This document shows, one piece after another, positions 41,176-63,757 of a stretch of DNA of 64,000 nucleotides. Positions within the stretch are counted from its first letter, which is position 1; each line of letters starts with the position of its first letter. Below the pieces are notes generated by a model. It had not been told where the DNA came from. It was given only the letters and a program-made list of their open reading frames with translations, and searched no databases. The position numbers were made by a program, and so were the translations under genes. Source of the DNA: an uncultured bacterium (GTDB taxonomy: Bacteria; Desulfobacterota_D; UBA1144; Nemesobacterales; UBA2774); NCBI GenBank assembly GCA_963825135.1, contig CAWGRW010000009.1, positions 2,144,001 through 2,208,000 of the forward strand, given 5' to 3'.

Positions 41176-41788
41176 CGGAGAGGGGTTTTACGCGGAGCAC
41201 GGGAAGCGTCTATTCGACCTCGTGCTCGCCGTACCGCTTCTCATAGTCCTTTCGCCGGCCCTCTGCGTGATAGCGCTCCTGATCCGGCGCGGCAGCCCGG
41301 GGCCCGTCTTCTTTACGCAGGAGCGGATGGGCAGGAACGGGGGCGCGTTCACGCTCTACAAGTTCAGGACCATGACCGGGAACGCGGCGGGGGAGGGCCC
41401 GCAGGTCACTTCACGGGGCGACCCGAGGATTACGGGGATAGGGAGGGTGCTCCGGAGATATAAGCTCGACGAGCTTCCTCAGCTGCTTAATGTCATAAAG
41501 GGCGACATGAGCCTCGTAGGCCCGAGGCCCGAGGTCAAAAAATACGCCGACGCGTTTCGGGAGGACTACTCGTCCATTTTGAAAATCAGTCCGGGCATCA
41601 CCGACTACGCCGCGCTCGAGTACAGGAACGAAGAGGAGATACTCGCGGGGTACGCAGACATAGAGGACGCATACACGCGGGTGATTCTTCCGGGCAAGAT
41701 CGCGCTCTACAAGAAATACATCGACGAGATGGGGTTTATGGCAGACCTGAAAATCCTTTTCAGAACCATGCTGGAGGTCGTCAAATGA
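41150..41788 (+). CDS. initiating phosphoglycosyl transferase (PglC-like)
   Basis: KRLFD, YKFRTM, DELPQLLNV.KGDMSLVGPRP. Confidence 0.92.
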   Translation: MSRQNTAYNGEGFYAEHGKRLFDLVLAVPLLIVLSPALCVIALLIRRGSPGPVFFTQERMGRNGGAFTLYKFRTMTGNAAGEGPQVTSRGDPRITGIGRVLRRYKLDELPQLLNVIKGDMSLVGPRPEVKKYADAFREDYSSILKISPGITDYAALEYRNEEEILAGYADIEDAYTRVILPGKIALYKKYIDEMGFMADLKILFRTMLEVVK

Positions 41789-43704
41789 TCAGAACGTCCA
41801 TACTGCGCTTCATCGAGAAAAACTACAAGCACAAACCGCTTCTGGCCGTGATCGCGGAGGTGCTCATTTTCACGGGCATACTGTTCGCGTCCTACTGGAT
41901 AAGACTGGGCGGCATAAAGGCGAGCTACCTGCCCCAGATCCTGTTCCTCACCGCCGTATACATACCCATAAAGCTCTTCGTATTCTGGGCGTTCAGGCTC
42001 TACAGGGTTTCGTTCAGGTACTTTTCGCTTTTCGACCTCATCGAGGTCCTTAAAGCCGCCGTAGTCTCCGCTGCGTTCCTTTCCGTTATCGGAATGGTGT
42101 TCAGGGATTTCCCCGTGATGGAGAGCTATCCGAGGTCTGTCGTCTTCATCGACCTCCTCCTTACGTTCCTCGCCTCCGCGGGACTCCGTTTCGGGTACAG
42201 GATATTCTATACCTCCAATTACGGGTATCACGGCGGAATGAGGGTGCTCATCGCGGGAGCGGGGGACGCGGGCGTACGCCTTCTGAAAGAGATGCGGACG
42301 ACCTCGCGGCAGAACTCCTCATACATACCGGTAGCGTTCATCGACGACGACCCGGCGAAGACCGGGAGCATCATCCGGGGCACGAGGGTCGCGGGGAACA
42401 GGACGGACATCCCGAGGCTCGTAAAGGAGCTCGACATCGCGGGGCTGATAATCTCGATCCCTTCGGCTTCCGCCTCACAGGTAAGCGGTATAATCGAGTA
42501 TGCGAGGAGCGCGGGCGTAGAGCATATAAAGATTATGCCGTGTATCTCGGATGTGCTCGCGGGTAAGGTCACGATGGGCGATTTCAAGGAGGCTACGGCG
42601 GACGATTTTCTGGGAAGGGACTCGGTCAAATCGGAGATGGGCGGCATAGCCGCATATATAAAAGGCAAACGCGTCATGGTTACCGGGGCCGGGGGATCGA
42701 TAGGGTCGGAGCTATGCAGACAGGTTTCGAGCTTCGAGCCGGGGCTCCTGATAATGCTCGACGTGGGGGATACGGAGCTGTTCTATATCAATCAGGAGAT
42801 GCGGGATACGCTGAATCGGGTCCCCTCGGTCCCGGTAATCGCGGACGTGAAGGACCCGGTCGCGATGAAAGAAGTCTTCGATACCCATTCACCCGAGGTC
42901 GTATTCCACGCAGCGGCATACAAGCACGTCCCGCTTCTCGAAAACAGCCCCAGGGAAGCCGTTCTCAACAATATCGAGGGCACGAAAGTCACCGCACTGC
43001 TTTCCTCGGGCTTCGGCGTTGAGAAGTTCGTTTTTATCTCAACGGATAAGGCCGTTAACCCGACAAGCGTTATGGGGGCCACTAAGCGCGTCTCCGAGAA
43101 CATGCTCAGGGAGATAAACGGCGGCACCGAGTTCGTCTCGGTGCGGTTCGGCAATGTGCTCGACTCGAGGGGCAGCGTCATACCGATATTCAGGGACCAG
43201 GTGAGGAGGGGAGGGCCCGTGACGGTGACTCACCCCGACATGACGCGCTATTTCATGAGCATACACGAAGCGGTTTACCTCGTCCTTCAGGCGGGCGCTC
43301 TGGGGAGGGGAGGGGAGGTCTTCGTGCTCGACATGGGAGAGCCGGTCAGGATACTCGACCTCGCGCATAACATCATCCGGTTCTTCGGACTCGAGCCCGA
43401 CAAGGACGTGCCCATCGTTTTCACGGGGCTGAGGCCCGGGGAGAAGCTCTTCGAGGAGATACTCACCGCGGAGGAAGGAACGACCGTCACGAAGAGTAAA
43501 AAGATATTCATAGCGAACGACAGGAACCATTTCGGAAAGGAGTACATAGAGGAAGTGAAAGAGCTTATACGCGAAGCGCGGAGGGGCGCGCAGCGCGGGG
43601 TCCTGATGCACATGCTGAAAGAGCTCGTCCCGACGTATCAGGTCGAGCTGCCCGAGGCGGGGTACAGGGGGTTCGTGAAACTGAAATCGACCGCGGCAAG
43701 GTGA
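41785..43704 (+). CDS. UDP-GlcNAc 4,6-dehydratase (CapD/PglF/WbpM family)
   Basis: N-terminal TMs, TGAGGSIGSEL, AAAYKHVP, STDKAV, RFGNVL.SRGSV. Confidence 0.93.
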   Translation: MIRTSILRFIEKNYKHKPLLAVIAEVLIFTGILFASYWIRLGGIKASYLPQILFLTAVYIPIKLFVFWAFRLYRVSFRYFSLFDLIEVLKAAVVSAAFLSVIGMVFRDFPVMESYPRSVVFIDLLLTFLASAGLRFGYRIFYTSNYGYHGGMRVLIAGAGDAGVRLLKEMRTTSRQNSSYIPVAFIDDDPAKTGSIIRGTRVAGNRTDIPRLVKELDIAGLIISIPSASASQVSGIIEYARSAGVEHIKIMPCISDVLAGKVTMGDFKEATADDFLGRDSVKSEMGGIAAYIKGKRVMVTGAGGSIGSELCRQVSSFEPGLLIMLDVGDTELFYINQEMRDTLNRVPSVPVIADVKDPVAMKEVFDTHSPEVVFHAAAYKHVPLLENSPREAVLNNIEGTKVTALLSSGFGVEKFVFISTDKAVNPTSVMGATKRVSENMLREINGGTEFVSVRFGNVLDSRGSVIPIFRDQVRRGGPVTVTHPDMTRYFMSIHEAVYLVLQAGALGRGGEVFVLDMGEPVRILDLAHNIIRFFGLEPDKDVPIVFTGLRPGEKLFEEILTAEEGTTVTKSKKIFIANDRNHFGKEYIEEVKELIREARRGAQRGVLMHMLKELVPTYQVELPEAGYRGFVKLKSTAAR

Positions 43705-43814: not shown

Positions 43815-43863
43815 ATTGACCGGATTCAGTCCGCCGCTTCGCGCCCCCCCCTGTTGAAGTGCC

Positions 43864-44013
<150 letters not shown>

Positions 44014-44320
44014 GTTTAAGACAGTTACTACCCTTCCAACGCACTGTGATTATTTGATGTTTGATTTCCCAATACCCCGATAAATACGACACTCCCAATT
44101 ATCACACTAGAAAACAACTAGAAGGACACACTATAACTATTAGTGTGAAGAATAACAAGAGTGTTCTGCACACCATCCGGTAGTGGGTCATTTTGAAATT
44201 TATGGGGGGGCAAGGGGAAGTGAGGTTGATAAATAATGATTACAGTGAATAGAAAATGATTGCAAAAGGCTACAGCGTGTCGTAAAATCAGTATATATTG
44301 ACCTAAGTGAGGATGATAAA

Positions 44321-44811
44321 ATGTTCAATCTCTGTGTTTTCTCTATAGTTTTCGTACTAACAGGCCTTATGATGCTCGTAGGTTTCGGGGAAGAAGCCTT
44401 TGGGCAGGGTGCGTGTAGTGCAGTTGCAATAAAAGAGGCCCCGGGAGGCAGCGGTGTCCAATTTCCATTCGAGGTCACATCGGACGGTAAGGAGCCTTTT
44501 ATTGCTAATATAGTCGGTGGAGGCTCGGATGGAGCACTTTTAATTCGAACGTTAGTGTGACCGAGCTGCCGTTAGCGGGATGGCAGCTCTCAGACATAGA
44601 ATGCGAGAATACGGGCGCGACAACATTTGAGATTACGGATAACGGTTTCACGGCCACATGTGACGGTGGCGGCGACGTCACCTGCGCTTTCACGAACGTG
44701 AGTGCTGTTTCGGAATTTCCGACTCTATCTGAGTGGGGGATGATCGCTATGGCTGGTATTTTGGGGATAGCTGGATTTATGGTTATACGCAGAAAGAGAG
44801 CAGTTGCATAA
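44321..44811 (+). CDS. IPTL-CTERM protein, frameshifted near 44535
   Basis: Two ORFs join into a close paralog of 59540..60037; C-terminal FPTLSEWGMIAMAGILGIAGFMVIRRKR. Confidence 0.8.
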
Positions 44812-44855
44812 AGACATGGGATTTTACAATATCAATGTTTAAGGGGAGCCTCGGC

Positions 44856-45362
44856 ATGAAAAGAACTAACAGTTCTCTCAAAATACTTTCTGGTATTTTT
44901 GTTGTTGCGTTAATTATGATGATTTTTCCCAAATTGGGAGTATCCCAATCAGCTACTCTTGGTTGTTGTTATGATCATGATGCTAACAAATGTGTGGGAT
45001 GTGTCGGTAATTGCTCATTATCTGAAGAGTTGTGCGGTTCAAATTCATGGTATGTAAATGGGGATGAAGGTTATAAATGTGTTTTAGTACCTCCCGATCA
45101 GGATCAATCCTGTGAACCGGCTTCTGGTCTGGGTTGCTGTGAATATAATGAGAGAAACTGTGCAGACGATGTTGATTTCTCAGCTTGTAATGGAGTGGGT
45201 GAGGCTTGGTTCGAAAAGGAATCATGTTCCAATGTCTCCCAATGTTTGAAACTGGTACAAGCCCCAATACCAACACTGACACAATGGGGCTTCATTGCGC
45301 TGGGTGGAATATTGGTTTTAACAAGTTTATATGCGATCCGTCGCAGAATAGCGAATACATAA
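44856..45362 (+). CDS. Cys-rich IPTL-CTERM protein
   Basis: Signal peptide, two LGCC..C repeats, IPTLTQWGFIALGGILVL..IRRR. Confidence 0.85.
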   Translation: MKRTNSSLKILSGIFVVALIMMIFPKLGVSQSATLGCCYDHDANKCVGCVGNCSLSEELCGSNSWYVNGDEGYKCVLVPPDQDQSCEPASGLGCCEYNERNCADDVDFSACNGVGEAWFEKESCSNVSQCLKLVQAPIPTLTQWGFIALGGILVLTSLYAIRRRIANT

Positions 45363-45381
45363 ATAGGACCGATAAATTTAG

Positions 45382-45410
45382 AAAAAGGGAGCCGAAGCTC
45401 CCTTTTTTTT
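45382..45410. terminator. bidirectional intrinsic terminator
   Basis: AAAAA-GGGAGC-CGAA-GCTCCC-TTTTTTTT. Confidence 0.85.
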
Positions 45411-45551
45411 GATACTTCTAACATTCATTATTCCAAGTAAATCTATTCAAAGCATTTGTGGATCAGTACAATAGCACCAATCTTCATTATTATGGAACTT
45501 TCGCTTAGAATCGAATATAATATAAAATTATTAATCGGAGTGAATCAGATT

Positions 45552-46022
45552 ATGGCAGGTGGAAAAGAGTTAGTTGAAAGTGATGTTGTGGATATTTCGA
45601 ATTACATTTCCCTGAAACAGTTCCCCCCGAAATTGCGTAAATTGGGAAAATATTTACTCCAAAGTGATCAACCCGTAACTATTATGGATGCTTGTAAGGC
45701 TATTGATGTGAAGTATGATAGCATTAGAAGTATGATTTATAAATCTAAACAAAATGGTAATGATTTCAATAGGTTTATAGCAGAACAAGCCGACATGATA
45801 CTTCATGCGGGGAAGGCAGAAGTTTACAAGGCCCTTCAGAAAGGAGCGGTTTCCGAAACGAGTACGAGCCATAATGATAGAAAAACCTACTTTCAGCTCA
45901 CCGGAGATTTGAAAGAGAACGCAAATATAAACACATCAATTACCCTTGCTATTGGTATTAATGTGAATGGAGTAATCCCCCAAGACGATCGGGAAAAGGG
46001 ACAATCGACATTGAGCCGATAA
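45552..46022 (+). CDS. HTH protein resembling phage terminase small subunits
   Basis: N-terminal HTH (TIMDACKAIDVKYDSI), then VYKAL..GA....DRKTYFQLTG helices; judged by recognition only. Confidence 0.5.
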   Translation: MAGGKELVESDVVDISNYISLKQFPPKLRKLGKYLLQSDQPVTIMDACKAIDVKYDSIRSMIYKSKQNGNDFNRFIAEQADMILHAGKAEVYKALQKGAVSETSTSHNDRKTYFQLTGDLKENANINTSITLAIGINVNGVIPQDDREKGQSTLSR

Positions 46023-46574
46023 TCCCGGCCGGGAAGTAGTTACAACAATTGTAATAAAAAATAGAACGTCCTAGAAGTATATTTATGTAAAGTGTACCGT
46101 AATCATTACATAATTATCTGACATTCTGCGCTGTTCACTACAATCCTTGTTTGACCTGTTAGCGGTATCTAGTTATATCAACTACTTATCCTAACCCGAC
46201 CTGTTAGCAAACCATACCGAACACGCCCAGGCGGGAGATCGTCCTGTCACCCCGGCGTAAAATGTCATTGGTGAGTTGATGGATAACTCCAAGGGCTTTT
46301 ATTTATTTTCCGGCTTGTTCCTTTGGAATATTTTTATACCCCCCCTTCTATTTTTTAGGGGCAGGGTGGGGTGTACCCCCGCCGCCCTACCTGGCCAGGG
46401 GGCGAGCAAGGGGGGTGGGAGTACAGGCGTAGGGTCCCATAGACGTACGGTTAAGATAAAAAATACTCAGGGTATTCAAATTAATAATTATGCTAAATTG
46501 ATGTTAAGCCATTGAAATTTAAAGTTAGTTCATGGTAAAGATAGAATAGATGTTGACCGAAGGGGGATATTAAT

Positions 46575-46874
46575 ATGAAAGAAAATGCTGGTTGCATATT
46601 CTACGTCATATATCTATTAATGGGTCTTGTCCAAATTTTCGCAATAGTAAAAGGTGTACAAATATGGTTTGGCCTGGAAGTGATATTGTCGTTTATTGTG
46701 GCTATTCTAATTACCTATATTCCAATCGTTGGTACAGTTGCCGGAATAATAGGCGCTTCAAAAGGATGGGGATGGAGCTATACTTGGGCGATTTTATTCT
46801 TTGGATGGCCCTACCTAATTTATCTAATTTTAATTTTATCTGTAGGGGTCAGTGATTTATTTCGTAGGAAATAG
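46575..46874 (+). CDS. small membrane protein
   Basis: 99 aa, 3 hydrophobic segments, RBS. Confidence 0.7.
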   Translation: MKENAGCIFYVIYLLMGLVQIFAIVKGVQIWFGLEVILSFIVAILITYIPIVGTVAGIIGASKGWGWSYTWAILFFGWPYLIYLILILSVGVSDLFRRK

Positions 46875-46941
46875 CTTTAGAGAAATACTTAAAAAGCTTC
46901 TTGTGTGAATATGAATCCTGACTTAATCTAAGACATAGGTC

Positions 46942-47613
46942 ATGTGTGGTCGGTTCGCACGTTCTACGGACAAGGAAGAGTTACAAAAGCGGTTCGGGTT
47001 CGATGATCCGAGTGGGATTCTTTTAAAACCGCGATACAACATAGCTCCATCTCAAATGCACCCCGTTGTGATTGTAGAACACGATCATAGAGTCCTTAAA
47101 TTGATGAAGTGGGGATTAGTGCCATTCTGGTCTAAAGATGAGAAAATCGGATACAAGATGATTAATGCCCGTTCAGAAGGAATTGAGAGTAAGCCCAGTT
47201 TCAGGGACCCATTCAAGAAAAGAAGGTGTCTGGTCTTATCTGATGGTTTCTATGAGTGGAAAAAGGTTGACGTTAAAACCAAAGTACCATACTTCATCAG
47301 GCTTAAATCAGGGGAGCCTTTTGCCTTCGCCGGTCTATGGGATACATGGGACAAGGGAAAAGAACCCCTTGATTCCTTCACCATAATCACAACCGAAAAC
47401 AATGAATTGATGGAGCCTATACATAACCGGATGCCCGTAATCCTGCATGAGAAGGATGAAGGGTTATGGCTCGATCCCGAGCTCAAGGACCCTGTGAAAA
47501 TAATACCCCTTCTTAAACCTTACCCGTCAGAAGAAATGGAACTATACGCAGTCTCTACGGTCGTAAATTCACCTAAGAATGACGTTCCGGATTGTATCGA
47601 GCCTGTATCTTAA
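46942..47613 (+). CDS. SOS response-associated peptidase (SRAP/YedK/HMCES family)
   Basis: MCGRF N-terminus, YNIAP, WGLVP, INARSE, HNRMPVIL. Confidence 0.95.
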   Translation: MCGRFARSTDKEELQKRFGFDDPSGILLKPRYNIAPSQMHPVVIVEHDHRVLKLMKWGLVPFWSKDEKIGYKMINARSEGIESKPSFRDPFKKRRCLVLSDGFYEWKKVDVKTKVPYFIRLKSGEPFAFAGLWDTWDKGKEPLDSFTIITTENNELMEPIHNRMPVILHEKDEGLWLDPELKDPVKIIPLLKPYPSEEMELYAVSTVVNSPKNDVPDCIEPVS

Positions 47614-47626
47614 ATAGGAGAGTGAT

Positions 47627-48064
47627 ATGAGAATAACAGACATTGGAATTATGGACTTATCGCAAACCCAAAGCCTACCCTTAGCAAAGGTAAGAATCCC
47701 TTGTGGTACTGGTTTCCCTTCACCAGCCGATGATTATTTGGAAGAAAGGCTGGACTTGAATAAGCACCTGATTAAGCATCCAGCGGCGACGTATTACGCC
47801 CGCGCGGAAGGGGATAGCATGATAGGCGCGGGTATTTACCCTGGGGATATACTCATCGTTGATAAGGCCATTGATGAAGTAAAGGACAGAGTAATAGTTG
47901 CCTGGTTAAATGGGGAGTTCACGGTTAAGAGATACTACATAGATGACAGACTGGGGAAGGTTTATTTAGTTCCGGAAAACCCGCAATATTACCCCCACGA
48001 AATTACCCCGGAGATGGATTTTATGATCTGGGGAGTTGTAACTTACAACATTCACAAGCTATAA
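47627..48064 (+). CDS. umuD: UmuD-like S24 autopeptidase
   Basis: GFPSPADDY, GDSM (catalytic Ser), EFTVKR (catalytic Lys). Confidence 0.93.
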   Translation: MRITDIGIMDLSQTQSLPLAKVRIPCGTGFPSPADDYLEERLDLNKHLIKHPAATYYARAEGDSMIGAGIYPGDILIVDKAIDEVKDRVIVAWLNGEFTVKRYYIDDRLGKVYLVPENPQYYPHEITPEMDFMIWGVVTYNIHKL

Positions 48065-48066
48065 AG

Positions 48067-48712
48067 ATGGATAATATCTGGTTAGAAAGGGTTGGGATTA
48101 TAATGAATTGTCTAGCTGGTTTCATGATAGCACCGGAGCTTATAGGAGATATAAGATTAATTAGGCTTAGTGATTGGATGCAAAAGTTCGTTAAAAAAAT
48201 ACAAGAATATCTTATCTGGGGACAACAAAATAATTGGACTGTTAGACAGGATTTCTTAATATCATATATGCTCCGATTAAATCCGCAACGAAAAAATCAA
48301 TCCCTACATACACAATATACCGTAGGATATACATTATTATTAATATTCTCTCTAACTTTATGGGCGGTAATATGGCTTTTCGTTCATTTATACGTTGAAA
48401 ACAATATCTTACTTTTGTACGCTTTTTGCGCATATAATACTTTTGTCCTTATTTCCATAATACTACTTCCACGAATAGCTGGTATATGGTCACCAGCCCG
48501 TCGTTTAGCAAGTCTCATATCTAACTCAGCCGAATTATACAGTGGGCTTGGTGTTGCTACTCTATATTTATTATCCGATGTCCTAAATTTAATACTCAAG
48601 TTTTTGTTTCATCAAGTCACACAGCATAAGTTTAGACATTTCGCTTGTTGCCGTTGGAATTGTAATGTATTTAGTGGGGAACCTACTCCAACTCGTTGCG
48701 ACATTCAAATAA
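48067..48712 (+). CDS. AT-rich membrane protein between umuD and umuC (probable frameshift near the 3' end)
   Basis: Several TM segments; an alternative frame supplies a final helix ISLVAVGIVMYLVGNLLQLVATFK*. Confidence 0.55.
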
Positions 48713-48728
48713 TATAAAGAGTAAGACT

Positions 48729-49991
48729 ATGAGGACTTATTATGCTCTGGTTGATTGCAACAATTTCTACGTATCCTGCGAACGGGTCTTTAATCCCGCT
48801 TTGAATGGTAAGCCTGTAATTGTTCTATCAAACAACGACGGCTGCGCAGTAGCTCTATCGAATGAAGCTAAACAGTACGTCGAAATGGGAGCTCCTATCT
48901 TCGAGCATATGGACATTGTGAGAAAGAACAGTATACAACTGTTTTCCAGCAATTATACTCTTTACGCGGATATGTCGCGCCGGGTGTATGAAGTATTGGC
49001 CGACTTCTCCCCGAACATTGAGAACTATTCTATTGATGAATCGTTCCTTTCCCTAGAAGGCTTTGAAAAACGCGATCTAACCTATTATGGAAGGGAGATA
49101 AGGGCGAAGGTTCTCAGGTGGACAGGAATCCCCGTATCAGTGGGAATCGCTCCTACAAAGACGCTGGCGAAGATCGCAAATAAACTGGCTAAAAAGAATA
49201 AGATGTGTCAAGGGGTATTGGATATAACAAATCACCCCAGGATCGATGATTTCCTTGCAAGCGTGGACGTGGGGGATGTTTGGGGGGTAGGCTGGCAATA
49301 TACCAGGCTTTTAAAAAGGCATGGGATAAACACAGCGCTCGATCTCAGAAACGCCCGTGACGGGTTTATAAGAAAGCATATGACGGTACAGGGCTTAAGG
49401 ACGGCTTGGGAGCTACGCGGGGAATCCTGCATTGAGTTGGAAGAAGTAACCCCGGACAAGAAGCAGATCGTGAGCTCGCGGTCATTCGGTAAGGACGTGG
49501 GAGAGTACAGAGAACTTTCTGAAGCAATAGCCACCTACGCAACCCGAGCGGCTGAAAAGCTACGGTCCCAAAACTCCATATGCGGTCATATATCCGTATG
49601 GATAGAAACCAACCGCTTTAAACCCAAGAACCCACAATACAGTAATGCAATCAGCTGTAGATTGCCGGAGCCAACGGCGTTTACTCCAATGCTTATAAAA
49701 TATGCCCTTTACCTGCTCAAGCGAATCTATCGAGACGGCTACGGGTACAAGAAAGCTGGGGTAGCGCTATTAGACATAGTTCCAGCCAATGAGACTCAGC
49801 TCAATCTTTTTATGAAAATTCACCACACTAAGAACAAAAACCTGATGTCGGCAATGGATAGCATTAATTCACAGTGGGGTAGGGAAACAGTAAGGTCGGG
49901 GGCATCGGGTTATGAAAGGCCGTGGGGTATGAAAAGGGCGATGTTATCAAAGAGATATACAACTAGATGGGGTGAATTACTGGAGGTTTAA
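48729..49991 (+). CDS. umuC: Y-family DNA polymerase UmuC
   Basis: ALVDCNNFYVSCE, SNNDGC, YSIDE, C-terminal W.MKR..LS..YTTRW. Confidence 0.95.
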   Translation: MRTYYALVDCNNFYVSCERVFNPALNGKPVIVLSNNDGCAVALSNEAKQYVEMGAPIFEHMDIVRKNSIQLFSSNYTLYADMSRRVYEVLADFSPNIENYSIDESFLSLEGFEKRDLTYYGREIRAKVLRWTGIPVSVGIAPTKTLAKIANKLAKKNKMCQGVLDITNHPRIDDFLASVDVGDVWGVGWQYTRLLKRHGINTALDLRNARDGFIRKHMTVQGLRTAWELRGESCIELEEVTPDKKQIVSSRSFGKDVGEYRELSEAIATYATRAAEKLRSQNSICGHISVWIETNRFKPKNPQYSNAISCRLPEPTAFTPMLIKYALYLLKRIYRDGYGYKKAGVALLDIVPANETQLNLFMKIHHTKNKNLMSAMDSINSQWGRETVRSGASGYERPWGMKRAMLSKRYTTRWGELLEV

Positions 49992-50003
49992 TAGGAGCGA
50001 ATT

Positions 50004-50937
50004 ATGTATGAAAAACCATATGACATTGTTAAAAGAGAGTTCAATAATAAAGAATTTGTGGGTTATCTTGAACTAGTATCTGGCAAGCTCGACCTACTTG
50101 TGAATTTTGGCTCATGGTTGTTTATGTGGTGTTCTAAAGATAATAGATTATTACCTGATGAGAAAATTGTATTATTGCTTATATTACGCAGAGTCTTAGA
50201 ATTGACCGACGCTATTTCTATTCTGATTAAGAAATCTTCAATTGACTCATGCAAGATATTGCTCAGATCATTATTAGAAACATATTTTGAGACGGAGTAT
50301 CTATTGAGCAAAGAGTCGGATAAAAGATCAAAATGCTACATAGTATGGTACTTGAATCAAGTATTAAAGTTAAAATACAGTTTCGCTCCGGAATCGAAAG
50401 AAGGTAAATTGTTTTATGAAGCTGTTAATCAAGATAAGTTTATAAATCGTATGACTCCGTTTAAGCCGGGAAAACTTAGATCGAATAATATCAGAACATA
50501 TCAATTTACTAAATGAATATGATGATATTAACGATGAGTATAACAAGACTCTAATGAAACAAAAGGGAAGATATTTTCCTTGGTATGCAATGTTTAATGG
50601 GCCAACTAATTTTAGGGATTTATCCGCTGTTGTTAATTTATTAGGATTATATGAACTATTGTTTCGTTATCTATCTAAATCAACTCACAATTCGGACATA
50701 TTTGAAGGTGTATTGAGAGAATCTGAAATTGAGAACTTTATTAATGTAGTACAGATACGATCCCCAAAAGATTTACAATTTGTAAAAACTTACACGTTTA
50801 CATTCGCATTGGGAATTTATAATTTATTGATCGATAAATTTTTTCCAAATAGTTTATATGCGAAACAACAACTAGGTTATTTCTATGAAAAAGAACTCAA
50901 AGATTTCTATACTGGGAATGTGAAGATTAATATGTAA
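50004..50937 (+). CDS. DUF5677-like helical protein, frameshifted near 50500
   Basis: ILLRSLLE motif in the first ORF; WY..F....L......Y..LS..TH motif in the second. Confidence 0.6.
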
Positions 50938-50968
50938 AATTACAAATTTAAACCAAAGTAGTAATTTT

Positions 50969-51193
50969 CTATGACGTACATTCTCCTTCGCAGGATTCAT
51001 ATTCGTCTTTAGCATCGTCGATACAACTTTTTAGCATAGAATCATCGTCTGGATCATCACCCCACATTATCTTGCAACTATCTACTTCTGATTCGTATTC
51101 GTTTTTACAATCAGTAATACATCCGGCCATTACCGGGATAGCTAGATAATCGAGAGCTATTAATATCGAACTTACGAGAATTATGTATTTCAT
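50969..51193 (-). CDS. small secreted Cys-rich protein
   Basis: Signal peptide plus 6 Cys in an acidic mature region. Confidence 0.65.
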   Translation of the reverse strand: MKYIILVSSILIALDYLAIPVMAGCITDCKNEYESEVDSCKIMWGDDPDDDSMLKSCIDDAKDEYESCEGECTS

Positions 51194-51359
51194 ATTGATT
51201 CAACAATGCCACAGTTTAATGTAACTCGCAAATGATGCTAAGTAATTCTATATTTCCATAATAGATGATATATTGATAATTAACTATTTGCATAGTTGAA
51301 TCGAAGGAAGTAATATTTGTTTTATAATGGCACATTAGAACAGATTTCTACTGCTTTTT

Positions 51360-51689
51360 GTGTTCATATTATTACTGCCAGCTACCTGCCTACACGCATC
51401 AGAAAGACCTGACTTCGATTCATACGAAGAAGCAATTGTTTGGGTTCGCGGTAATAATAATTTCACAAAGGATTCGGTGGATACTTCCAAGAGCTCCTGG
51501 ATCAGAGCAGCCGAATATTATACCGATAGTTCGGGGGATGGTTTTCTTAACTTGAATATGAAAGGACAAGAATACATTTGGGAAGGTGTACCGATAGATA
51601 TTTGTAAGGGCTTCAAGAATGCTGATTCATTCGGGAAATATTATCATCGGTATATAAAGGGGAAATATTATATGGAGTTGGGGAATTGA
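51360..51689 (+). CDS. KTSC-domain protein with hydrophobic leader
   Basis: SSWIRAAEY..L.LNM...Y...GVP......F.NADSFGKYYHRYIKG. Confidence 0.75.
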   Translation: MFILLLPATCLHASERPDFDSYEEAIVWVRGNNNFTKDSVDTSKSSWIRAAEYYTDSSGDGFLNLNMKGQEYIWEGVPIDICKGFKNADSFGKYYHRYIKGKYYMELGN

Positions 51690-51699
51690 GTACGAATAT

Positions 51700-52806
51700 T
51701 TATTTTAGTAACTTTTCTATATGCTTCAAGAAATGGTCATATATGCTATTCGACCTAATTTGATTATCATACCGTTTAAATTCTTTATATCCTGATTTAA
51801 GCTTGTATGTATTTCCGCTCATTGCAGGTTCGTTGGGGTCGCCACCCCAAACGGTTATTGCCGCTTTCAGAGTGTTTACCATATCCGAAGGCGGTGGATT
51901 CTGGATTGAAATACTATTGTTCTTAATGATCGTGTTCCTAGTCCCATACCATAGAGCTATCCCTGTATTAACATTCACAAGCTGATTGCCTTCGACTAAT
52001 GTGCCGTCTATATAGTAGCCCGATTTACTGCAATCATCACCATTGAAATTCACCCCCGCCCCCGGAGTGGGGCCGAGATAGTTATCGATGACCCTATTCC
52101 CCTTCATTTGAACGCAATAACCGGAGGCATTACTTAGATAAACGTCATGGCAATGACGGTTCGAATTAATCCCACCCAGCACACAATTCATGCCATTATC
52201 TTCCAGCCTGTTATCTTCAATCAGCACATAACTTGAAGAGGCAACAAAACTCGACCCGTACCAGAAATGGTGAGCCCAGTTGTTTTTCGCAACAACATTG
52301 TTGGAATGGAAGTCGAGGCCAGCGTACCCATTTCTCACTTCAAAACCTGAAAATTCATAATCATCCTGTCCTGGGTTAGTTCTGATAGAACACTCTTGAC
52401 AATATCCAGGTTCAATCACGGGCTTATTATTTGGAGAGGCGATTACGTGAACGCCTTTCTTTCCCATCAACTGAGCGTTGATATTCCACACTCCGTCCCC
52501 GACGCATACATATTGCCCGGCACTCGCAACATTAATCTTTGCCTGTATAGATTCCCCAGCCTTGACCGTATTCGTAGTTGTGCAATGGTTCGGCTTGTTG
52601 TAATCGGGCAAGCCGTCAACCCATCCCTGAATCGAGCCTATTATTTTACCGTCTTTATCGATGACTGGGACATTATAATCCCAATACCTTACTGGAGTAG
52701 GCGTAGGAGGCACAGTCGGGTCAGGGGCAGGGAATTGAACTTCAGCCCACGAATGAATGCCGAGAAGGGAAGACAATAAAAATAAACCAACTATCATCTT
52801 TCTCAT
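51700..52806 (-). CDS. secreted right-handed beta-helix protein (pectate lyase/NosD-like fold)
   Basis: Signal peptide, Pro/Thr linker, GESIQAKIN, repeated I.NN/IE.N strands. Confidence 0.75.
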   Translation of the reverse strand: MRKMIVGLFLLSSLLGIHSWAEVQFPAPDPTVPPTPTPVRYWDYNVPVIDKDGKIIGSIQGWVDGLPDYNKPNHCTTTNTVKAGESIQAKINVASAGQYVCVGDGVWNINAQLMGKKGVHVIASPNNKPVIEPGYCQECSIRTNPGQDDYEFSGFEVRNGYAGLDFHSNNVVAKNNWAHHFWYGSSFVASSSYVLIEDNRLEDNGMNCVLGGINSNRHCHDVYLSNASGYCVQMKGNRVIDNYLGPTPGAGVNFNGDDCSKSGYYIDGTLVEGNQLVNVNTGIALWYGTRNTIIKNNSISIQNPPPSDMVNTLKAAITVWGGDPNEPAMSGNTYKLKSGYKEFKRYDNQIRSNSIYDHFLKHIEKLLK

Positions 52807-53077
52807 AGTTATTGTATTGTTGCAATGCATATCAAAACACTCTTATGTTCACGATATTTCTTGCCGCTTACCGTTCTTAGAACTTAAAAAGCTATCTTAA
52901 CCGTCAGGACTGCACTTGTCAGGACTGTGGGAGGCGAGAACTTCCACATTAACTCACCCATCAGGCCGTTCATGGCCTGGTTGGCTTAAGATCGTAATGT
53001 GCGTCAATTTCGCCTGGGGGCGTGGTTGGAACACTGATTTATCCATTCCAAGAGACTCTATTCATCGAAAACCGACT

Positions 53078-53377
53078 CTAGCTTACGGAATTTGATAAAA
53101 TCGGGGATTTTAAGAACCTTTTACGGGCAGCTTCCCTTTGGGATTCTGACACCTTCCTGGGGGCTGAAATCTTGATCCAGCGTTTCGGGACCCGGAAACA
53201 CTCGTAATCGGCTTGTTTATGGTGCGGCTTCACCCCTATCTTAGTCATACGGTTCTTAATCCGTTTTTGCCGGGTGCTAATCTGAGCAAAAGATTCTTCA
53301 TCGTTAAAGCTGATAACTGTCTCGGTTTCAATCTTTTTCAATTGATTCTCCTTTTTTTTTATTTTCTTTGCTGGCAC
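53078..53377 (-). CDS. hypothetical basic protein
   Basis: 99-aa ORF; C-terminal SESQREAARKR. Confidence 0.6.
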   Translation of the reverse strand: MPAKKIKKKENQLKKIETETVISFNDEESFAQISTRQKRIKNRMTKIGVKPHHKQADYECFRVPKRWIKISAPRKVSESQREAARKRFLKSPILSNSVS

Positions 53378-53568
53378 TTGCTAACAAACAGATTGAGACT
53401 GTAAAAAAAGATTATTCTCTTAGGGGGACATGTATTCCCCCCCTTAATCCCCTTTCAAACATTAAAGACTTTAAAGGGATTGGAAGATTAAAAGGATTAA
53501 AGAAACAGAAAAAGCCCCAAAGCCTTAAAACCTTGACTACTCTCTTCTGTATTACGTAACGGTTTGGA

Positions 53569-54836
53569 TCATTCTTTTGGATCATTTATTTGTGCCATCT
53601 CCGAGGCTGGATTTGAAGCGATTAACTTTAATTCCGACTTCTCTTTCTTTAGTGTGATCTCGGTAATCGCGCTTCGACCAACACCGTATGATTTCAGGGT
53701 TAGGCCGGGTATCGAATCTAATGCATGTAGAAACGAGCTATAAGGGATAGCAAGGTCTTTTGCTAATCCCCTTAACGAAGTTACCATGTACCCCCCGGAG
53801 CTCTCCAGTATTCGGCGTATCCTAAGGGCGTAGTGCTTAATCTTGTCTCTCGGGGGTTTAGGTGCTCTTTCTATGGCGGGAGCAGGCTTCGATTGCCATT
53901 CACGGGCCTTTTCCGCTATTCGGCTTAGATGTGTCTTAGAAAGCCTATATCCGTTCCTGTACGCACTTTTTACGCTAGCTTTAACCCTGGACTCATATTC
54001 GGGGGCATAAAGTCCGTCATTCCAGAATAAGAGCCTTGTAAGGGCTTCCTGCTCGCTTAAACCCTGTTCTCGGTAATGAATGGCTAATGTAAGACACGCT
54101 TGATTCCTGACCCCGTCCGGGTCCCGGCTTCGAGTATCGCTATATCTTCTGATTCAGCGTTTTTCCGCTTTACCGGGGGTCGTATGATCTCGGCATCAAT
54201 CAAGGTCTGATGTACGTCGGTAAGGGTGGTTATAGAGCCTGAGTGATAGACTGTTTCGACTAGCGGCTTATCAGGATATTTGTAATTGGGATGACCGGGA
54301 ATCCGTATCAGACCGACAATGTTTCTTGTGGCCGCTTGATCCGCGCCTAGGTCTTCAAAAGCCCTAAAAAGGCCATTGGCACATTTCTTCCAGTATGAAA
54401 TCTTCTCAGGGAAGGCTCGGGCGGGCTTTATTCGGACAATGACGTGAAAGCGGCCCTGGCTGGTCTGTCTTATCTCACTAGGCGGTTCGGGAAACCCGAG
54501 CTGGCCCCATCTCTCCAAAATCTCGTCAGGGGATAAGAGCAAAGGCCCCTTATCGCCGTCTATGTCGATGTAAAGGGCATACAGAGCGTGAAGGTAATCA
54601 TGTCCCCGCTTTCTTTGATAGAAGGAATTGGGGGTTTCTAATTGGTGAGTCTTTCGAAATCGCTCAATATTGGCTAACTGGCATGGGGATTCGGATACGA
54701 AATTGTCCCTTTCGTCCCGCTTGTGGATAAAGTAATATTCCCCCTTGTTATAACCTGATCCCATAGAGTTTGTTTTCGTGCTCACTTTTGATAAATGATT
54801 TTCCACCGGCGTTTGGAGCATTGCCTTTTGATTCAA
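53569..54836 (-). CDS. primase-type replication protein (primase domain + PriCT-1 + C-terminal HTH), frameshifted near 54120
   Basis: LYIDID, TSQGRFH, RIPG motifs; second frame reads G.RNQACLTLA..YR..G..WN..VKSAY and continues into SLRGLAKDLAIPYSS. Confidence 0.75.
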
Positions 54837-55422
54837 TTAACTCGTTTAAAATTCCCCCTAGCGGTTGCAGCCGGGCCTTCGAGATCAGGGTATAAGGGCG
54901 GCGGGACCCGATCGCTTTATGGAGCACATCGGGGTTGTTTTCCTGTTTTACCTCGGCTCGATAGAGATTGTTAATCCAGCTAGCCCGATAATCCTGTCCT
55001 GGTTCCGGCGCGGGGAAAATGTAAAGAATCTTGAGAGCGCCTGGGGGGTTCCAATTCAGGACAAAATCTTTCTGTGATTCGTAAGACGCTGTATTAATGG
55101 AATAATTACTACTTTCGGTCAGTACGGTTTTAACTTCGATCAGGAACGTCCCGCTGTGATCGGGGCGTATTGCAATGAGGTCGGGCATATAGCGAATGAA
55201 CCCGCTAGTTGCATCATTAAGCTGTCGGAGTTCTACTTTAAATTCGGGGGGTAAAAGTTCCTGACCGAAGGGGGCGGTGGTAATGCCGAACCCGTTGAGG
55301 TATTCGGAGAGAGTCTTTTCAAATCTATGTCCGCGTTCAATCCGGGTTTGATAATTTATTCGGTCCGGTGTCGGGGGTATAGTTGAAAATCTGTTTGAAC
55401 GTGATAGAATTTGATTAGCCAT
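54748..55422 (-). CDS. PD-(D/E)XK nuclease-like protein
   Basis: GHRFE..PDL..LIEVK motif. Confidence 0.65.
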   Translation of the reverse strand: MANQILSRSNRFSTIPPTPDRINYQTRIERGHRFEKTLSEYLNGFGITTAPFGQELLPPEFKVELRQLNDATSGFIRYMPDLIAIRPDHSGTFLIEVKTVLTESSNYSINTASYESQKDFVLNWNPPGALKILYIFPAPEPGQDYRASWINNLYRAEVKQENNPDVLHKAIGSRRPYTLISKARLQPLGGILNELIESKGNAPNAGGKSFIKSEHENKLYGIRL

Positions 55423-55476
55423 TGATTTTCCATCCGAGCCGCTCCGCCTACCAGCAAGACGCGGCTCTTTTTTTGC

Positions 55477-55668
55477 CTAATTCACGCTTCCCCTTACTCG
55501 ATCGTCGCTAAACTTTTGTTGGATGATAGACTCAAGGTCGGCAATCTCATCTTTCAATGCTGAGAAAAAGTTATTGGCCTCGATTCTTTCTTCAGAACCA
55601 CCGCCAAGTAGGCTTATAGACTCGACACCTTCCGGGGTGAGAATGAGCCCGATTTTCGGTCCTTTCAT
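55477..55668 (-). CDS. small hypothetical protein
   Basis: 63 aa, AAGGAG RBS, first gene of the leftward operon. Confidence 0.6.
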   Translation of the reverse strand: MKGPKIGLILTPEGVESISLLGGGSEERIEANNFFSALKDEIADLESIIQQKFSDDRVRGSVN

Positions 55669-55822
55669 ATTCTCTCCTTTGTGCGTTAAATACCTTCTAC
55701 CTACCTATCTACTCACGGAGAGCGTTTTGTCCCAAAACTATTTTTTCAGGTAAAAAATCGTGGAAGCTATTTACGCCGGGGTCTATAAATGACGGGCAAA
55801 GTATGTTAGAATAATCAGTAAA

Positions 55823-56641: not shown

Positions 56642-56974
56642 AGAAAAAAGAAAACAAGTCTTAATTCAGAAATATGGGGATGGCAGGAGAAGAAGGATGG
56701 TAAAGAAAGTAGTTGCTTCGATTCGCAAGAGATGTTTGTGTCCGTAAATGAATTGTTGAGGGATACCAAAGGCACAGGTGATGAAGAAATCATAGTTCAG
56801 AAACTTCAAGATGATACTCCATCACTTCGGGATATGGAAAAGAAGGTGGGTATGTCTAAAAAGTAAAATTTCTAACCATCTTAAAAAACTTAAGAGAATT
56901 ATATCTTCTGTAATTCCACTCCAGTTTATAGTATGATGAAACTAGTTTCCGTTTTCTAAGGGGTCGGGGACTCA

Positions 56975-57304
56975 ATGAAATACCTTGTTTTTCTGCTCTT
57001 ATTCCTGATAGGTTGTGGCGGGGGGAATTACTACGGGACAACTGCTACTCCGTATAACAGTTATTACACCGATAGTTCAGGTTATCAGCCCGGCGCATAT
57101 GGAAACAATGATCAGGGATTTCAGACGCCACAACAGTATGAATCCAGAAATCGATGGAAATATGTGCCGTCAGTTCAGGAACAAAAACCCGCTCCAGACC
57201 TTTATATAAACACGATGACAGGCTATTCGTATATGCGGCTCGGAGATGATGAAAATAGTTTTTATGTCGATCCCAAGGGGAAATACGCTCATGCAGTTTG
57301 GTGA
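56975..57304 (+). CDS. hypothetical lipoprotein
   Basis: MKYLVFLLLFLIGC lipobox. Confidence 0.7.
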   Translation: MKYLVFLLLFLIGCGGGNYYGTTATPYNSYYTDSSGYQPGAYGNNDQGFQTPQQYESRNRWKYVPSVQEQKPAPDLYINTMTGYSYMRLGDDENSFYVDPKGKYAHAVW

Positions 57305-57976: not shown

Positions 57977-57985
57977 CTTATAAGA

Positions 57986-59041
57986 TTAATCCCTCACCAG
58001 CTTCAGCTTCTTTTCCCCCCAGGGCAGCTTCTTAATCGCTCGGGCTTTATGCTCGTCAGATAAGTGGGCGTATATCATGGTCGTGACTATGCTCTTATGG
58101 CCCATTAATTCCTTTATTGTTGGAAGATCAACACCACTCATTACAAGGTGTGATGCAAAAGTGTGTCTTAGGGTATGGGGAGTTACTTTCTTTAGACCCG
58201 CCCGTTTAACTGCATTATTAAAGCAGGTCTTGAATGATGTAATAGACTTTCCGTCCGGGTTGCAGAATAAGTAAATCTTTTGATCCTGCCTCGGGGAAAC
58301 CTTGTCATGTGGGGATACGTAATTATCCCTTAAAAAAGAGCAGGGTGGCTTTTAATTCGTCATTCATAGACACGGTGTAATAGCCGTTCCCTTTTGTATT
58401 CAGGATGGTGAGCAAGTCGTTTTCATGGGCCGCGTCATCGAGCTTCAATTCCCTTAACTGTTTCGATCGTAGGCCCGCACTCCGTAGAATGGTTAATATG
58501 AGCCGGAGCCATAAGGAAGCGGCGCCCATCAACATATCGAGCTCTGTCCGGGAAAGAAAACGGGGCGGCTTCTCCTGACTCGTGAGTTTTTTGATTTTGG
58601 GAGACGTAGATAATAAGCGCCATTCGATAGCCTTACTGAGCATGTATTGAAGGCATAGGAGCTCAATATTGATTGTACGGTTGCTTACCCCTTCCCCTTG
58701 CCGTTTAGCCTTGTAAAGCTCTATATGCTCGTTATCAATGGAATCAACCATCATTGTAACAAAGTAAGGAGAAAGGACCCGTGTGCTGGTAATATCTCTT
58801 TCCCATGTTCGGTGAGCCTTATTCGCTCTGGAGTAGTTGAGATAGCGGACTATCAGATCATTAAACGGGACGGGCTTAATATCCATAAGGCCCAATTTGT
58901 CCCGTCCGATTTGGATTCAACTTTCTTGATATACTCCCGAGCGTCCTTGTATGGTACCTTTCCAATCCGCTTCCATTTGACCCAACCATTTATGCGAAAC
59001 AAAGCATAATAGACTTCCCCCTTTTTGGTTAAACCAGCCAT
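57986..59041 (-). CDS. int: tyrosine recombinase/integrase, two frameshifts
   Basis: N-terminal arm-like segment, SNRTINIEL, GLR, HTLRHTFASHLV, LMGH, TTMIYAH; stop at 57986. Confidence 0.9.
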
Positions 59042-59066
59042 GACAGTATCCCCCTTTTGCATGGTT

Positions 59067-59240
<174 letters not shown>

Positions 59241-59247
<7 letters not shown>

Positions 59248-59423
59248 CTCCTCCTTCCCGAAGCATAGCGACAGAGTTGCAATTTTCCACCAGCGACCGG
59301 TTCCTCTTAATTTGGTTTCAGTAATGACGGTACGGGGTCTTTTTGCGTTCGTGCCTTCAACCATGAGCGACCAATTCCTCGCTTGCTCGGAATTGTTGAT
59401 CGGAACCGTTCCTCCGGGCGCGC
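59241..59423 (+). repeat. tRNA-linked repeat, copy 1
   Basis: Begins and ends with the tRNA 3' end GGGCGCGC; core 59293..59405 identical to 61090..61202. Confidence 0.9.
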
Positions 59424-59445
59424 ACTCCTTTCCCGAGGCACTGTT

Positions 59446-59629
59446 AAGGAATACCATGGAGGATGGAGGAATATGCCAGGGGCCTCCGGTACGAGAAACC
59501 ATGCCGAGAGCATAGTACCAATTATTAATTCGCGACTTATTAATTCGCGACAGCCTTTCTTCTGCGCACCGCGAAGAACACCCCGACCAATCCTAATCCC
59601 GCCGCCGCCGCGATCATGCCCCATTCGGA
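59446..59629. repeat. IPTL anchor plus downstream module, copy 1
   Basis: 184 bp, near-identical to 60181..60364. Confidence 0.9.
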
Positions 59630-60037
59630 CAGAGTCGGAATATTCGAAACAGCGCTCACGTTCGTGAACATGCAGGTGACGTCGCCGCCGCCGTCGCATG
59701 TGGCCGTGAAACCGTTCTCCGTAATTTCGAACCCCGTCGCGCCCGTACTCTCGCACTCAACGCCCGAAAGCCTCCATCCCGCTAACGGCAGCTCGGTCAC
59801 AGTGACTCCCGAATTAAAAGTGCCTCCCTCCGAGCCTCCGCCTTCTATACCAACAAGAAAGGGCTCTTTACCGTCCGATGTGACCTCGAATGGAAATAGG
59901 ACACCACTGCCTCCAGGCGCCTCTTTTATGACGACCGCACTACACGCACCCTGCCCAAAGGCTGCTTCCCCGAAACCCGCGAGCATCGTAAGGCCTGTCA
60001 GTACGAAAACTATAGAGAAAACAGAGAGATTGAACAT
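59540..60037 (-). CDS. IPTL-CTERM protein
   Basis: Signal peptide; IPTLSEWGMIAAAAGLGLVGVFFAVRRRK. Confidence 0.9.
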   Translation of the reverse strand: MFNLSVFSIVFVLTGLTMLAGFGEAAFGQGACSAVVIKEAPGGSGVLFPFEVTSDGKEPFLVGIEGGGSEGGTFNSGVTVTELPLAGWRLSGVECESTGATGFEITENGFTATCDGGGDVTCMFTNVSAVSNIPTLSEWGMIAAAAGLGLVGVFFAVRRRKAVAN

Positions 60038-60180
60038 TTTATCATCCTCACTCAATTATGACTTTTAGCCAACATATTATATTTCTATTCCCAAGTCAAT
60101 CGCTTCCCTTCCCCTAACCCGCCGTATTTCTTGAAAAGGAGGTCCGGGTAAATGCGCTTTAGGGACGCCGGCACCGAAAG

Positions 60181-60364
60181 AAGGAATACCATGGAGGATG
60201 GAGGAGTATGCCCGGGGCCTCCGGTACGAGAAACCATGCCGAGAGCATCGTACTGATTATTAATTCACGACTTATTAATTCGCGTAGGCCTTTCTTCTGC
60301 GCACCGCGAAGAACAACCCGACCAATCCTAATCCCGCCGCCGCCGCGATCATGCCCCATTCGGA
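60181..60364. repeat. IPTL anchor plus downstream module, copy 2
   Basis: Near-identical to 59446..59629. Confidence 0.9.
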
Positions 60365-60745
60365 TAAGGTGGGGATGGGATTGATGTTCAATCCGCATGC
60401 TTCGAGCACGCGTGCCCTGCAAAATATAGCTTGTTGCCCAGTAATACGAATCCCAAGCGGGCTATCACCCTCATAGCCGAATGAGCAATTCCCACCTTCT
60501 ATATCCATAAACGTTGCAAAATTCACAGATTCATTAGAAACTATTATGCCTTGGGATATTTCATTGGATTCGAGAACATACTGAGTGCCCGGTCCAAGTT
60601 GACCGCCGGGGCATAGAGCTTCAATTACATCATTGCCCGTGGTCCCGTCTGGCAGTGCCTGCGTATCGCACGGGCAGGTTTGTGAAAAAGCATAATCGGA
60701 TACAAAAAGAACTGCTAATAATATAAACAGGTTATAGATTTTCAT
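60275..60745 (-). CDS. IPTL-CTERM protein
   Basis: Signal peptide; Cys-containing passenger; IPTLSEWGMIAAAAGLGLVGLFFAVRRRK. Confidence 0.9.
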   Translation of the reverse strand: MKIYNLFILLAVLFVSDYAFSQTCPCDTQALPDGTTGNDVIEALCPGGQLGPGTQYVLESNEISQGIIVSNESVNFATFMDIEGGNCSFGYEGDSPLGIRITGQQAIFCRARVLEACGLNINPIPTLSEWGMIAAAAGLGLVGLFFAVRRRKAYAN

Positions 60746-61037
60746 ATCAATCGCTCCTTTAAACAGTTTTATCTGCAATCAATAAATTCTACTGATTGTA
60801 ACACTTTTAGGTTTGCAGTACAATAAATATAGGTATTATCGACGAGGCAAAATTTGCGCCGTCAGAGAAAGGTCGAGTCCGGGATAAGATTGCCGAAGTC
60901 GTAGGTATGTCTGGTTGGAACTTGTACAAGTTGTCACTTCCCCTTGCCGTCGCGCCTGGCAAAGATATTGTTTATGGCTTCCGTATACGGCTCCCGGAGG
61001 GACTTGCCGAGCCGGGCGGCCGGTATCTTCAATTGCA

Positions 61038-62700: not shown

Positions 62701-63001
62701 CAACTGCAACGCCTTCTGACCGCGGCTTCCACCGGCAGCCGTGGCCTAAACCCTTCAAGCCGAGCTTGTAGATCGACGCAATATTTTGCCTTAGTGGGCT
62801 TGGCCAGAGTAATAAATACCGGGTTAATTTTAGAGCGTATGGACCATCGCTGTCCCTGGAGGTGGGGATCGCAGGGGTTTGTGAGCAATACCATTTGCCA
62901 CTTCCATTGTGTTCCTAATAATATATAATGACGATAACTTTATATTCGTCAGAGTTAATCTATAATATTCAGAGATGGTTACTTTTTCAGGAGGATTCCG
63001 G

Positions 63002-63757
63002 ATGACTTTAATTATCCGTTATTATAAAATTACTCTATTCCTTTGCGTTGTTTCCGTATTCGGATGCATTACCGGAACGCGTGCTTCGGCGCAGGTTACG
63101 TTTACGAACGACGAAGCGGAGTTCTTCGCCGACAACCCCGGTCTCCTGGTTCAGGCTTTCAATTCCGCCGTCACCTCCGGCTGTGATGCGCCCTTCGATT
63201 CGACCGACAGCGCCGGCTGCTTCCCGCCGGGCGCAATACTCCCGGGGGTGGTGTACGATGTCGCCCCCTCCCACGAGTTCTTCGATATCTTCGCCGTCAA
63301 TTTTGACGGAACGAGCGGCAACCCCTCGAAAGCGATCGGACCGGACAACCATACCGATACTTTGGATATTATTTTCGAGAAAGGCGGAGTGTCCGCTGCC
63401 GGAGTCAGGCCCGGATGCTTCGTATTGACCGGCGATGTGTGCCTTAGAACTGTGACGATCAGCGTCTATGGAGCCGGAGACGCGTTATTAAGCTCTACGC
63501 AGGCGGATGTGTCGAGCCATTTCGACGATTTCGTCGGCGTCGAGTCCGACATTCCCATAGCGAGGATCAGCGTCGCGGGGCCTGATTTGGGGCCCGACTC
63601 CGGCTTCCACGCAGTTTCGGAAGTGGTTTTTCCGCAGGGTTCGCTCTCGCCTGTTCCCACACTCTCCGAATGGGGCATGATAGCGGCTGCGGCAGGATTG
63701 ATGCTCGTCGGGGTCTTCTTCGCGGTGAGGAAAAGAATAGCACAGGCGAAGGTTTAA
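63002..63757 (+). CDS. IPTL-CTERM protein
   Basis: Signal peptide; VPTLSEWGMIAAAAGLMLVGVFFAVRKR. Confidence 0.88.
   Translation: MTLIIRYYKITLFLCVVSVFGCITGTRASAQVTFTNDEAEFFADNPGLLVQAFNSAVTSGCDAPFDSTDSAGCFPPGAILPGVVYDVAPSHEFFDIFAVNFDGTSGNPSKAIGPDNHTDTLDIIFEKGGVSAAGVRPGCFVLTGDVCLRTVTISVYGAGDALLSSTQADVSSHFDDFVGVESDIPIARISVAGPDLGPDSGFHAVSEVVFPQGSLSPVPTLSEWGMIAAAAGLMLVGVFFAVRKRIAQAKV

Follow-up and report, generated by a model that had tools for sequence, protein, structure and literature searches.

Several surface-protein families are reshuffled by recombination at conserved segments, including pilE/pilS of Neisseria, msp2 of Anaplasma and the Rhs/CdiA proteins with their C-terminal displacement. 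The locus described here likewise has a short conserved coding stretch that parts a variable module from the rest of the gene and marks the mosaic junction; by contrast with these systems, the variable part is the N-terminal passenger, and the part that is swapped is a disposable anchor together with the DNA downstream of it. Genes that flank an attachment (att) site can also be captured by mobile elements, as in the specialised transduction of gal/bio by lambda, in which case one expects the captured DNA to border on the att core and to take the place of the element's arm. The present locus is similar to lambda gal/bio in having a gene of host lineage at the edge of an element near an att site, but differs in that its cargo is set apart from the core by about 100 nt of conserved arm. 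In common with tRNA-targeting islands, the element has (i) repeats that include part of a tRNA gene, (ii) an integrase at one end, and (iii) accessory cargo (UmuDC, SRAP) that is not found at this locus in relatives. Its repeat is formed by the 5' part of the tRNA and 124 nt of upstream sequence instead of the more usual 3' end, and its integrase is in three frames.

The genes at issue belong to the IPTL-CTERM family (TIGR04174 / PF18203), for which exosortase H (XrtH, TIGR04177) is presumably the IPTL-specific sorting enzyme. One paper presents an IPTL-CTERM protein as the S-layer protein of Methylomirabilis lanthanidiphila (PMC8671808). In a literature search on IPTL-CTERM and exosortase H, no account of 3'-end exchange or of island carriage was found. 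Within the window (the whole 64,000-nt stretch of DNA that was analysed), five genes pass the curated TIGR04174 cut-off of 20.5 bits: the island gene I (38.6 bits), gene 2 (22.2 bits), the host gene H (24.4 bits), its neighbour N (21.8 bits) and the gene at 62975..63757 (22.3 bits). The Pfam model PF18203 also matches the IPTL-CTERM genes at the locus. In the translations, the N-termini are hydrophobic and end in an ...AFGQG-type site, which by eye is a putative signal. The genome has at least 55 matches to the TIGR04174 model, and a motif scan for IPTL-type C-termini returned 81 ORFs, 68 of them on the two large contigs, of which 67 were analysed once a 24-aa false match was dropped. A single XrtH gene is present (C9:944910-945377; 91.7 bits against a cut-off of 86) and adjoins a gene for an XrtH-associated protein. 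Across 101 genomes of the order, XrtH and IPTL-CTERM are both present in 31, XrtH only in 1, IPTL-CTERM only in 5 and neither in 64; of the 37 genomes with at least one of the two families, 31 thus have both, a count in which kin are not independent.

Gene I resides in an island at tRNA-Arg(TCT) that is bounded by a 167-nt direct repeat, the copies of which are 95% identical and include tRNA-Arg positions 1-43. The attL-like left copy (43847..44013, + strand) joins 124 nt from upstream of the tRNA to the first 43 nt of tRNA-Arg(TCT), its end falling in the anticodon loop/stem; the attR-like right copy is at 59050..59216 (+) and the intact tRNA-Arg(TCT) at 59174..59248 (+). The tyrosine integrase (57986..59062, -) is distributed over three frames (59062-58853, 58916-58323 and 58351-57986), the pieces of which are 52-68% identical at the amino acid level to the intact integrase (353 aa) of a homologous island in G011. 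The three frames reflect either a broken gene or assembly indels, the latter being plausible. A perfect 126-nt repeat, in which upstream sequence is joined to the 5' part of tRNA-Arg(CCT), flanks the G011 island. Related integrases are found in 20 of the 101 genomes, and a search for loci related to the G011 integrase returned only the record of the query itself and one distant match. Past the crossover point, about 100 nt of a conserved left arm (44014..44110, +) are homologous to the left arm of the G011 island, and the IPTL cargo begins near 44150-44178, inside this conserved arm. A backbone gene with a weak HTH match follows (45456..46022, +; 53% amino acid identity to the G011 island gene L052:3707-4189). 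The slot between the arm and the backbone gene is occupied by an unrelated 264-aa ORF in G011 and by a pair of IPTL genes in the genome under study; thus, the pair is cargo in a variable slot inside the island.

Further cargo includes genes for an SRAP peptidase, a UmuD-like protein, a 216-aa ORF that matches no family and a UmuC-like polymerase V subunit (46942..49991, +), which are co-directional and represent a translesion-synthesis module. A DUF5677 gene is seemingly split into ORFs 50004-50516 and 50554-50937, and may be a broken gene or an assembly indel. Also between the repeats are a KTSC-domain ORF and a gene for a beta-helix protein. In a DNA search of 20 relatives, the interior (45400-59050) was not found as a block, and only fragments of at most 1.2 kb were detected in 5 of the 20, at other genome sites; no such island block is present at the tRNA-Arg(TCT) loci of G009, G003 and G002. 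To the left of the island, variant contig C17 of the assembly joins 15317-18459 (98.4%) straight to 43825-43892, which points to a co-assembled strain without the intervening 25.4 kb or so (18460-43824). The block missing from this strain ends with a Polysacc_synt_2 (CapD-type) gene (41785..43704), homologues of which in G004, G007 and G009 are not beside tRNA-Arg(TCT). In G007 (L014, C10:541000-554000; 6231-7625), the 5' end of tRNA-Arg(TCT) adjoins the C-terminal fragment of an integrase, and an IPTL-CTERM gene follows, which again points to this tRNA, within the genus, as a hot spot of integration with IPTL genes at its flanks.

Gene I (44321..44811, +) pairs a SpaA_4-type passenger with a type-B anchor, and H (59540..60037, -) pairs a SpaA_4-type passenger with a type-A anchor; the reading frame of H in the ORF listing is 59540..60055 (-), with an ATG at 60037. 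According to the initial annotation, the two genes have an RBS region and most of the passenger in common, in inverted orientation, and diverge after PTLSEWGMIA. Alignment confirms both points: nucleotide similarity sets in abruptly at the common RBS string AGTGAGGATGATAAAATG and is lost after the PTLSEWGMIA codons, with an identity of 86.7% over 443 nt (BLASTN) and of 86.4% in the coding part from the start codon to the motif (398 nt). The two anchor peptides quoted in support also agree with the alignment and the ORF translations. The description needs amending in two respects, namely that I consists of two ORFs and that a copy at least as close, T, exists 1.5 Mb away. The inverted repeat has one pair of arms at 44306-44534/59824-60052 (229 nt, 90%) and another at 44534-44747/59610-59823 (214 nt, 84%). 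Compared with H and T, I is 80-97% identical from 44306 to about 44745, after which the similarity collapses. A 1-nt gap relative to H near 44534 breaks the frame of I into ORFs 44321-44560 and 44557-44811 (79 and 84 aa); this gap may be an assembly error. The dN/dS values (0.32-0.33 for I vs H or T; 0.49 for H vs T) indicate that I has been under constraint for most of its history, and the frameshift is thus either recent or an error. The SpaA_4 prealbumin-like model PF24514 (threshold 27.3 bits) matches H (34.9 bits), T (36.6 bits) and the second ORF of I (27.4 bits).

Genes I and H lie 14.7 kb apart. When three family members were placed at random, a pair fell within 15.3 kb in 3.1% of 200,000 simulated trials; thus, the adjacency is probably not due to chance. 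The divergence between the two genes is 13.6%, and the longest identical run in the coding part is 30 nt, which implies that any exchange between I and H is old.

Past the motif, the closest relative of I is found elsewhere. The stretch 44719-45408 is 95.2% identical over 690 nt (BLASTN) to C9:286258-286947, which lies in a second island at a tRNA-Met gene. In 30-nt windows, identity to this locus lies near 0% up to 44710, rises to 70-77% over the motif and the first half of the helix, and reaches 93-100% from about 44766-44770 to 45385, with most windows at 97-100%. The segment common to I and the tRNA-Met island (44766..45408, +) holds the distal half of the anchor, the intergenic region, gene 2 (44859..45362, +; a Cys-rich IPTL-CTERM protein of 167 aa) and a hairpin with a T run. 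As read by eye, the similarity ends after this G+C-rich hairpin and T run (about 45383-45410); a simple terminator scan of 44000-45500 found no terminator. The breakpoint zone (44719..44765, +), which spans the codons of the IPTL motif and of the first half of the TM helix, is 70-72% identical to H, T and M and has its closest match, at 81%, in a partial G005 homologue that likewise has a type-B anchor. At the partner locus of the tRNA-Met island, a 295-aa DUF4394-type IPTL gene is followed by the copy of gene 2. As the passenger matches H and T while the distal anchor and gene 2 match the tRNA-Met island, I is a chimera.

The second island (C9:275685-290266; L001) is about 14.5 kb in length, and its IPTL pair is homologous to the gene 2 module. 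Its flank repeats are formed by 40-47 nt of the 3' part of the tRNA (C9:274022-274068 and 275685-275724), and its contents include an intact 365-aa integrase, IS (rve) fragments, a methyltransferase and an AI-2E transporter. Repeat units of 51 nt and 44 nt occur about every 2 kb in this island (L001:657-788, 2668-2817, 4725-4870, 9123-9166 and 10177-10227), with a few other copies on C9. These units were considered as cassette borders and dropped, as they are local to the region and a few other sites and none flanks the shared module.

The 3' end of H is related to that of a different gene again. The anchor of H with 94 nt of downstream DNA (59446..59641, -) is repeated at the 3' end (60181-60376) of the neighbouring IPTL-CTERM gene N (60275..60778, -), the two 3' ends being 94.5% identical over 184 nt by BLASTN and 92% without gaps. 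The passenger of N is unrelated to that of H, whereas the anchors are nearly identical. Thus, the passenger homologues I, H and T carry three different 3' ends, and for two of the three the nearest 3' end is that of an unrelated gene. Around H and N, the tRNA-Arg 3' end and the sequence that follows it occur in three copies (59236-59265, 59411-59440 and 61033-61062), and a 181-nt direct repeat (59241-59421 vs 61038-61218; 89-91%) brackets the H and N block. The 181-nt repeat could have been left by a further integration event at the tRNA 3' end, or it could be a case of tRNA-linked repeats; a similar repeat is found 4.8 kb downstream of tRNA-Arg in G004 (L016).

Mosaic 3' ends are common in the genome. 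The last 54 coding nt and the 100 nt downstream were compared among the 67 genes, with passenger relation assessed by BLASTP. A 3'-end partner of at least 0.90 identity was found for 16 of the 67 genes, and in 10 of these 16 the passenger of the partner has no BLASTP relation. Thus, the histories of passenger and anchor are incongruent genome-wide. The initial annotation had placed recombination at the IPTL motif, and both the three 3' ends of the I, H and T homologues and these 10 of 16 closest pairs with unrelated passengers agree with a crossover at or near it; sequence comparison supports events at, or just after, the motif. The mean pairwise identity of the 36-nt motif is 0.71 over 2211 gene pairs, compared to 0.29 just upstream and 0.55 downstream. 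Identical runs of at least 20 nt within the motif are noted in only 73 of the 2211 pairs, which would make the motif a weak substrate for RecA-type recombination.

The third copy T (C9:666383-666895), which lies 1.5 Mb from I and H, has an anchor of its own, of a third kind. In a BLASTN search of the whole genome, the query 44306-44747 of I matched two places, H and, with 88.0% identity, T at C9:666450-666892; from the start codon to the motif (398 nt), identity is 88.4% between I and T and 92.2% between the H and T passengers. Upstream of the RBS, H and T have 74 nt in common that are absent from I. A maximum likelihood (ML) tree was built on 11 of 13 aligned rows, three of them partial and with two G003 rows (40-43% identity) left out. 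In this tree, I, H and T form one clade (97% support) whose sister is a G002 gene (97%) located 2 kb downstream of tRNA-Arg(TCT) in the orientation of the tRNA. The pairing of H with T has a support of only 58%, and I, H and T form a near-trichotomy. A promoter-like region upstream of I (44178..44313, +; TTGCAA-17-TAAAAT at 44260-44288) is about 80% conserved and precedes an I-like gene in G005; in G009 and G001 it is located downstream of tRNA-Arg(TCT). Based on these sequence relationships, a local origin of the island cargo near tRNA-Arg(TCT) is plausible, and the closeness of I to H is most readily accounted for if the passenger lineage has long resided near this tRNA. T itself is part of a tandem array of six IPTL-CTERM genes that includes a DUF4394-type gene (C9:662584-667565) and adjoins tRNA-Leu(TAA) (C9:667808-667894). 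The DUF4394 gene that follows T is 71% identical at the amino acid level to the gene of the tRNA-Met island. Two members of the array that lie 2.7 kb apart have 3' ends that are 99% identical and passengers that are unrelated.

Gene I is probably a mosaic and possibly frameshifted member of an IPTL-CTERM family of about 67 genes, which a degraded tRNA-Arg(TCT) island carries as cargo in its variable left slot. As predicted from family knowledge and co-occurrence, the C-terminal helix would retain the proteins after export, and exosortase H would then process them at the IPTL motif. If the anchor is discarded at that stage, swapping it costs nothing and recombinant 3' ends may persist. The IPTLSEWGMIA/TM-coding stretch is the only nucleotide similarity among otherwise unrelated family members, at which homologous recombination (gene conversion or unequal crossover) may repeatedly join one passenger to the 3' end and downstream DNA of another gene. 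For I, the promoter region and passenger would derive from the lineage that also gave H and T, a lineage that is likely an ancient resident beside tRNA-Arg(TCT). The codons of the IPTL motif and the first half of the TM helix are closest to those of the type-B-anchored G005 homologue, and the distal half of the anchor and gene 2 would have been shared recently with the tRNA-Met island. The mosaic may, for example, have arisen by a deletion between tandem SpaA_4-type and DUF4394-type genes, an order that is still present at C9:665-667k. By this reading, the resemblance of I to H reflects routine reshuffling in a large gene family and not a special shuttle, and no new kind of mobile-element mechanism is called for. 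A broader form of the mosaic reading can be entertained tentatively, with some doubt: the IPTL/TM stretch may serve as a family-wide recombination handle by which about 67 exosortase-H substrates, including the copies on two tRNA islands, continually swap passengers, 3' ends and downstream genes, with the islands moving modules between strains.

The initial annotation had instead proposed that the element shuttles IPTL passengers to or from the locus beside its att site, with the crossover at the IPTL motif. In this model the exchange would be specific to that locus, and its route would be capture on excision or recombination between the inverted copies. This model is unlikely. It accommodates the 14.7 kb between I and H, for which chance gives an expectation of 3.1%, as well as the single clade of I, H and T with a sister gene near tRNA-Arg in G002, the occurrence of the upstream region of I downstream of tRNA-Arg(TCT) in G009 and G001, and the stop of the I/H homology at the motif. 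By contrast, T is nearer to I and to H than I is to H despite its distance of 1.5 Mb, the distal anchor half of I and gene 2 come from, or are common to, the tRNA-Met island and not the att flank, and the anchor of H matches that of its own neighbour N. The position of the cargo also differs from that expected of imprecise excision, which would leave captured DNA abutting the att core with the arm replaced: the arm sequence 44014-44110 aligns with that of G011, and the cargo is within the conserved left arm instead of separating that arm from the att core. The proposed shuttle with the att-side locus is thus not upheld as originally worded, with T at least as close and the cargo inside the conserved left arm.

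The proximity and mosaic structure may also be by-products of assembly, if a collapsed or chimeric metagenome assembly joined paralogues of different strains, but this is very unlikely. The assembly is of metagenome type, with 17 contigs, namely two large ones and 15 small ones that are variants of these at 92-99%; one end of C17 falls within the 167-nt repeat; and the differences between near-identical contigs are indel-rich (for example, 32 gap openings per 42 mismatches and 54 per 70 between variant contigs). Assembly artefacts may account for the frameshifts and possibly for where repeats have been placed. Genes I and H, together with the island and both copies of its repeat, are, however, all on one contig of 2.79 Mb; the junctions of the supposed chimera coincide with the motif and the hairpin, which makes biological sense; G011 has an island of the same architecture; and similar mosaic 3' ends occur at many loci. 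Among the public runs searched, none had more than 0.08 of the sampled words from the locus. Contigs from four public runs matched mainly the 5' half of the tRNA in other organisms and short pieces of gene 2, with 44393-44700 uncovered.

Least credible of all is that the inverted pair works as an active switch, by inversion of the 15-kb segment or by gene conversion that exchanges gene ends, since the 443-nt inverted repeat that such a switch would use is only 86.7% identical with a longest identical run of 30 nt, a scan of 25 ORFs found no invertase family, no alternative junction was seen among the 15 small variant contigs, and flipping would turn tRNA-Arg and the integrase around without obvious gain. 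Inversion between I and H was also considered as the cause of the swapped anchors and set aside by reasoning alone, as the ancestral layout would be implausible, with the tRNA inverted and facing its own 5' copy.

IPTL-CTERM proteins form a large and almost unstudied class of predicted surface proteins, and the mosaic reading of gene I makes this locus a worked example in which passenger and anchor have separate histories and in which islands can carry such genes. The pattern suggests that one anchor can functionally stand in for another, which is what removal by exosortase H would lead one to expect. The locus also serves as a warning that orthology and function are not to be inferred from the C-terminal part of IPTL-CTERM proteins. 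For the uncultivated lineage that harbors these genes, the locus yields a concrete hypothesis on surface variation; if the IPTL/TM stretch does act as a family-wide recombination handle, the genes would constitute a cell-surface diversification system of this lineage.
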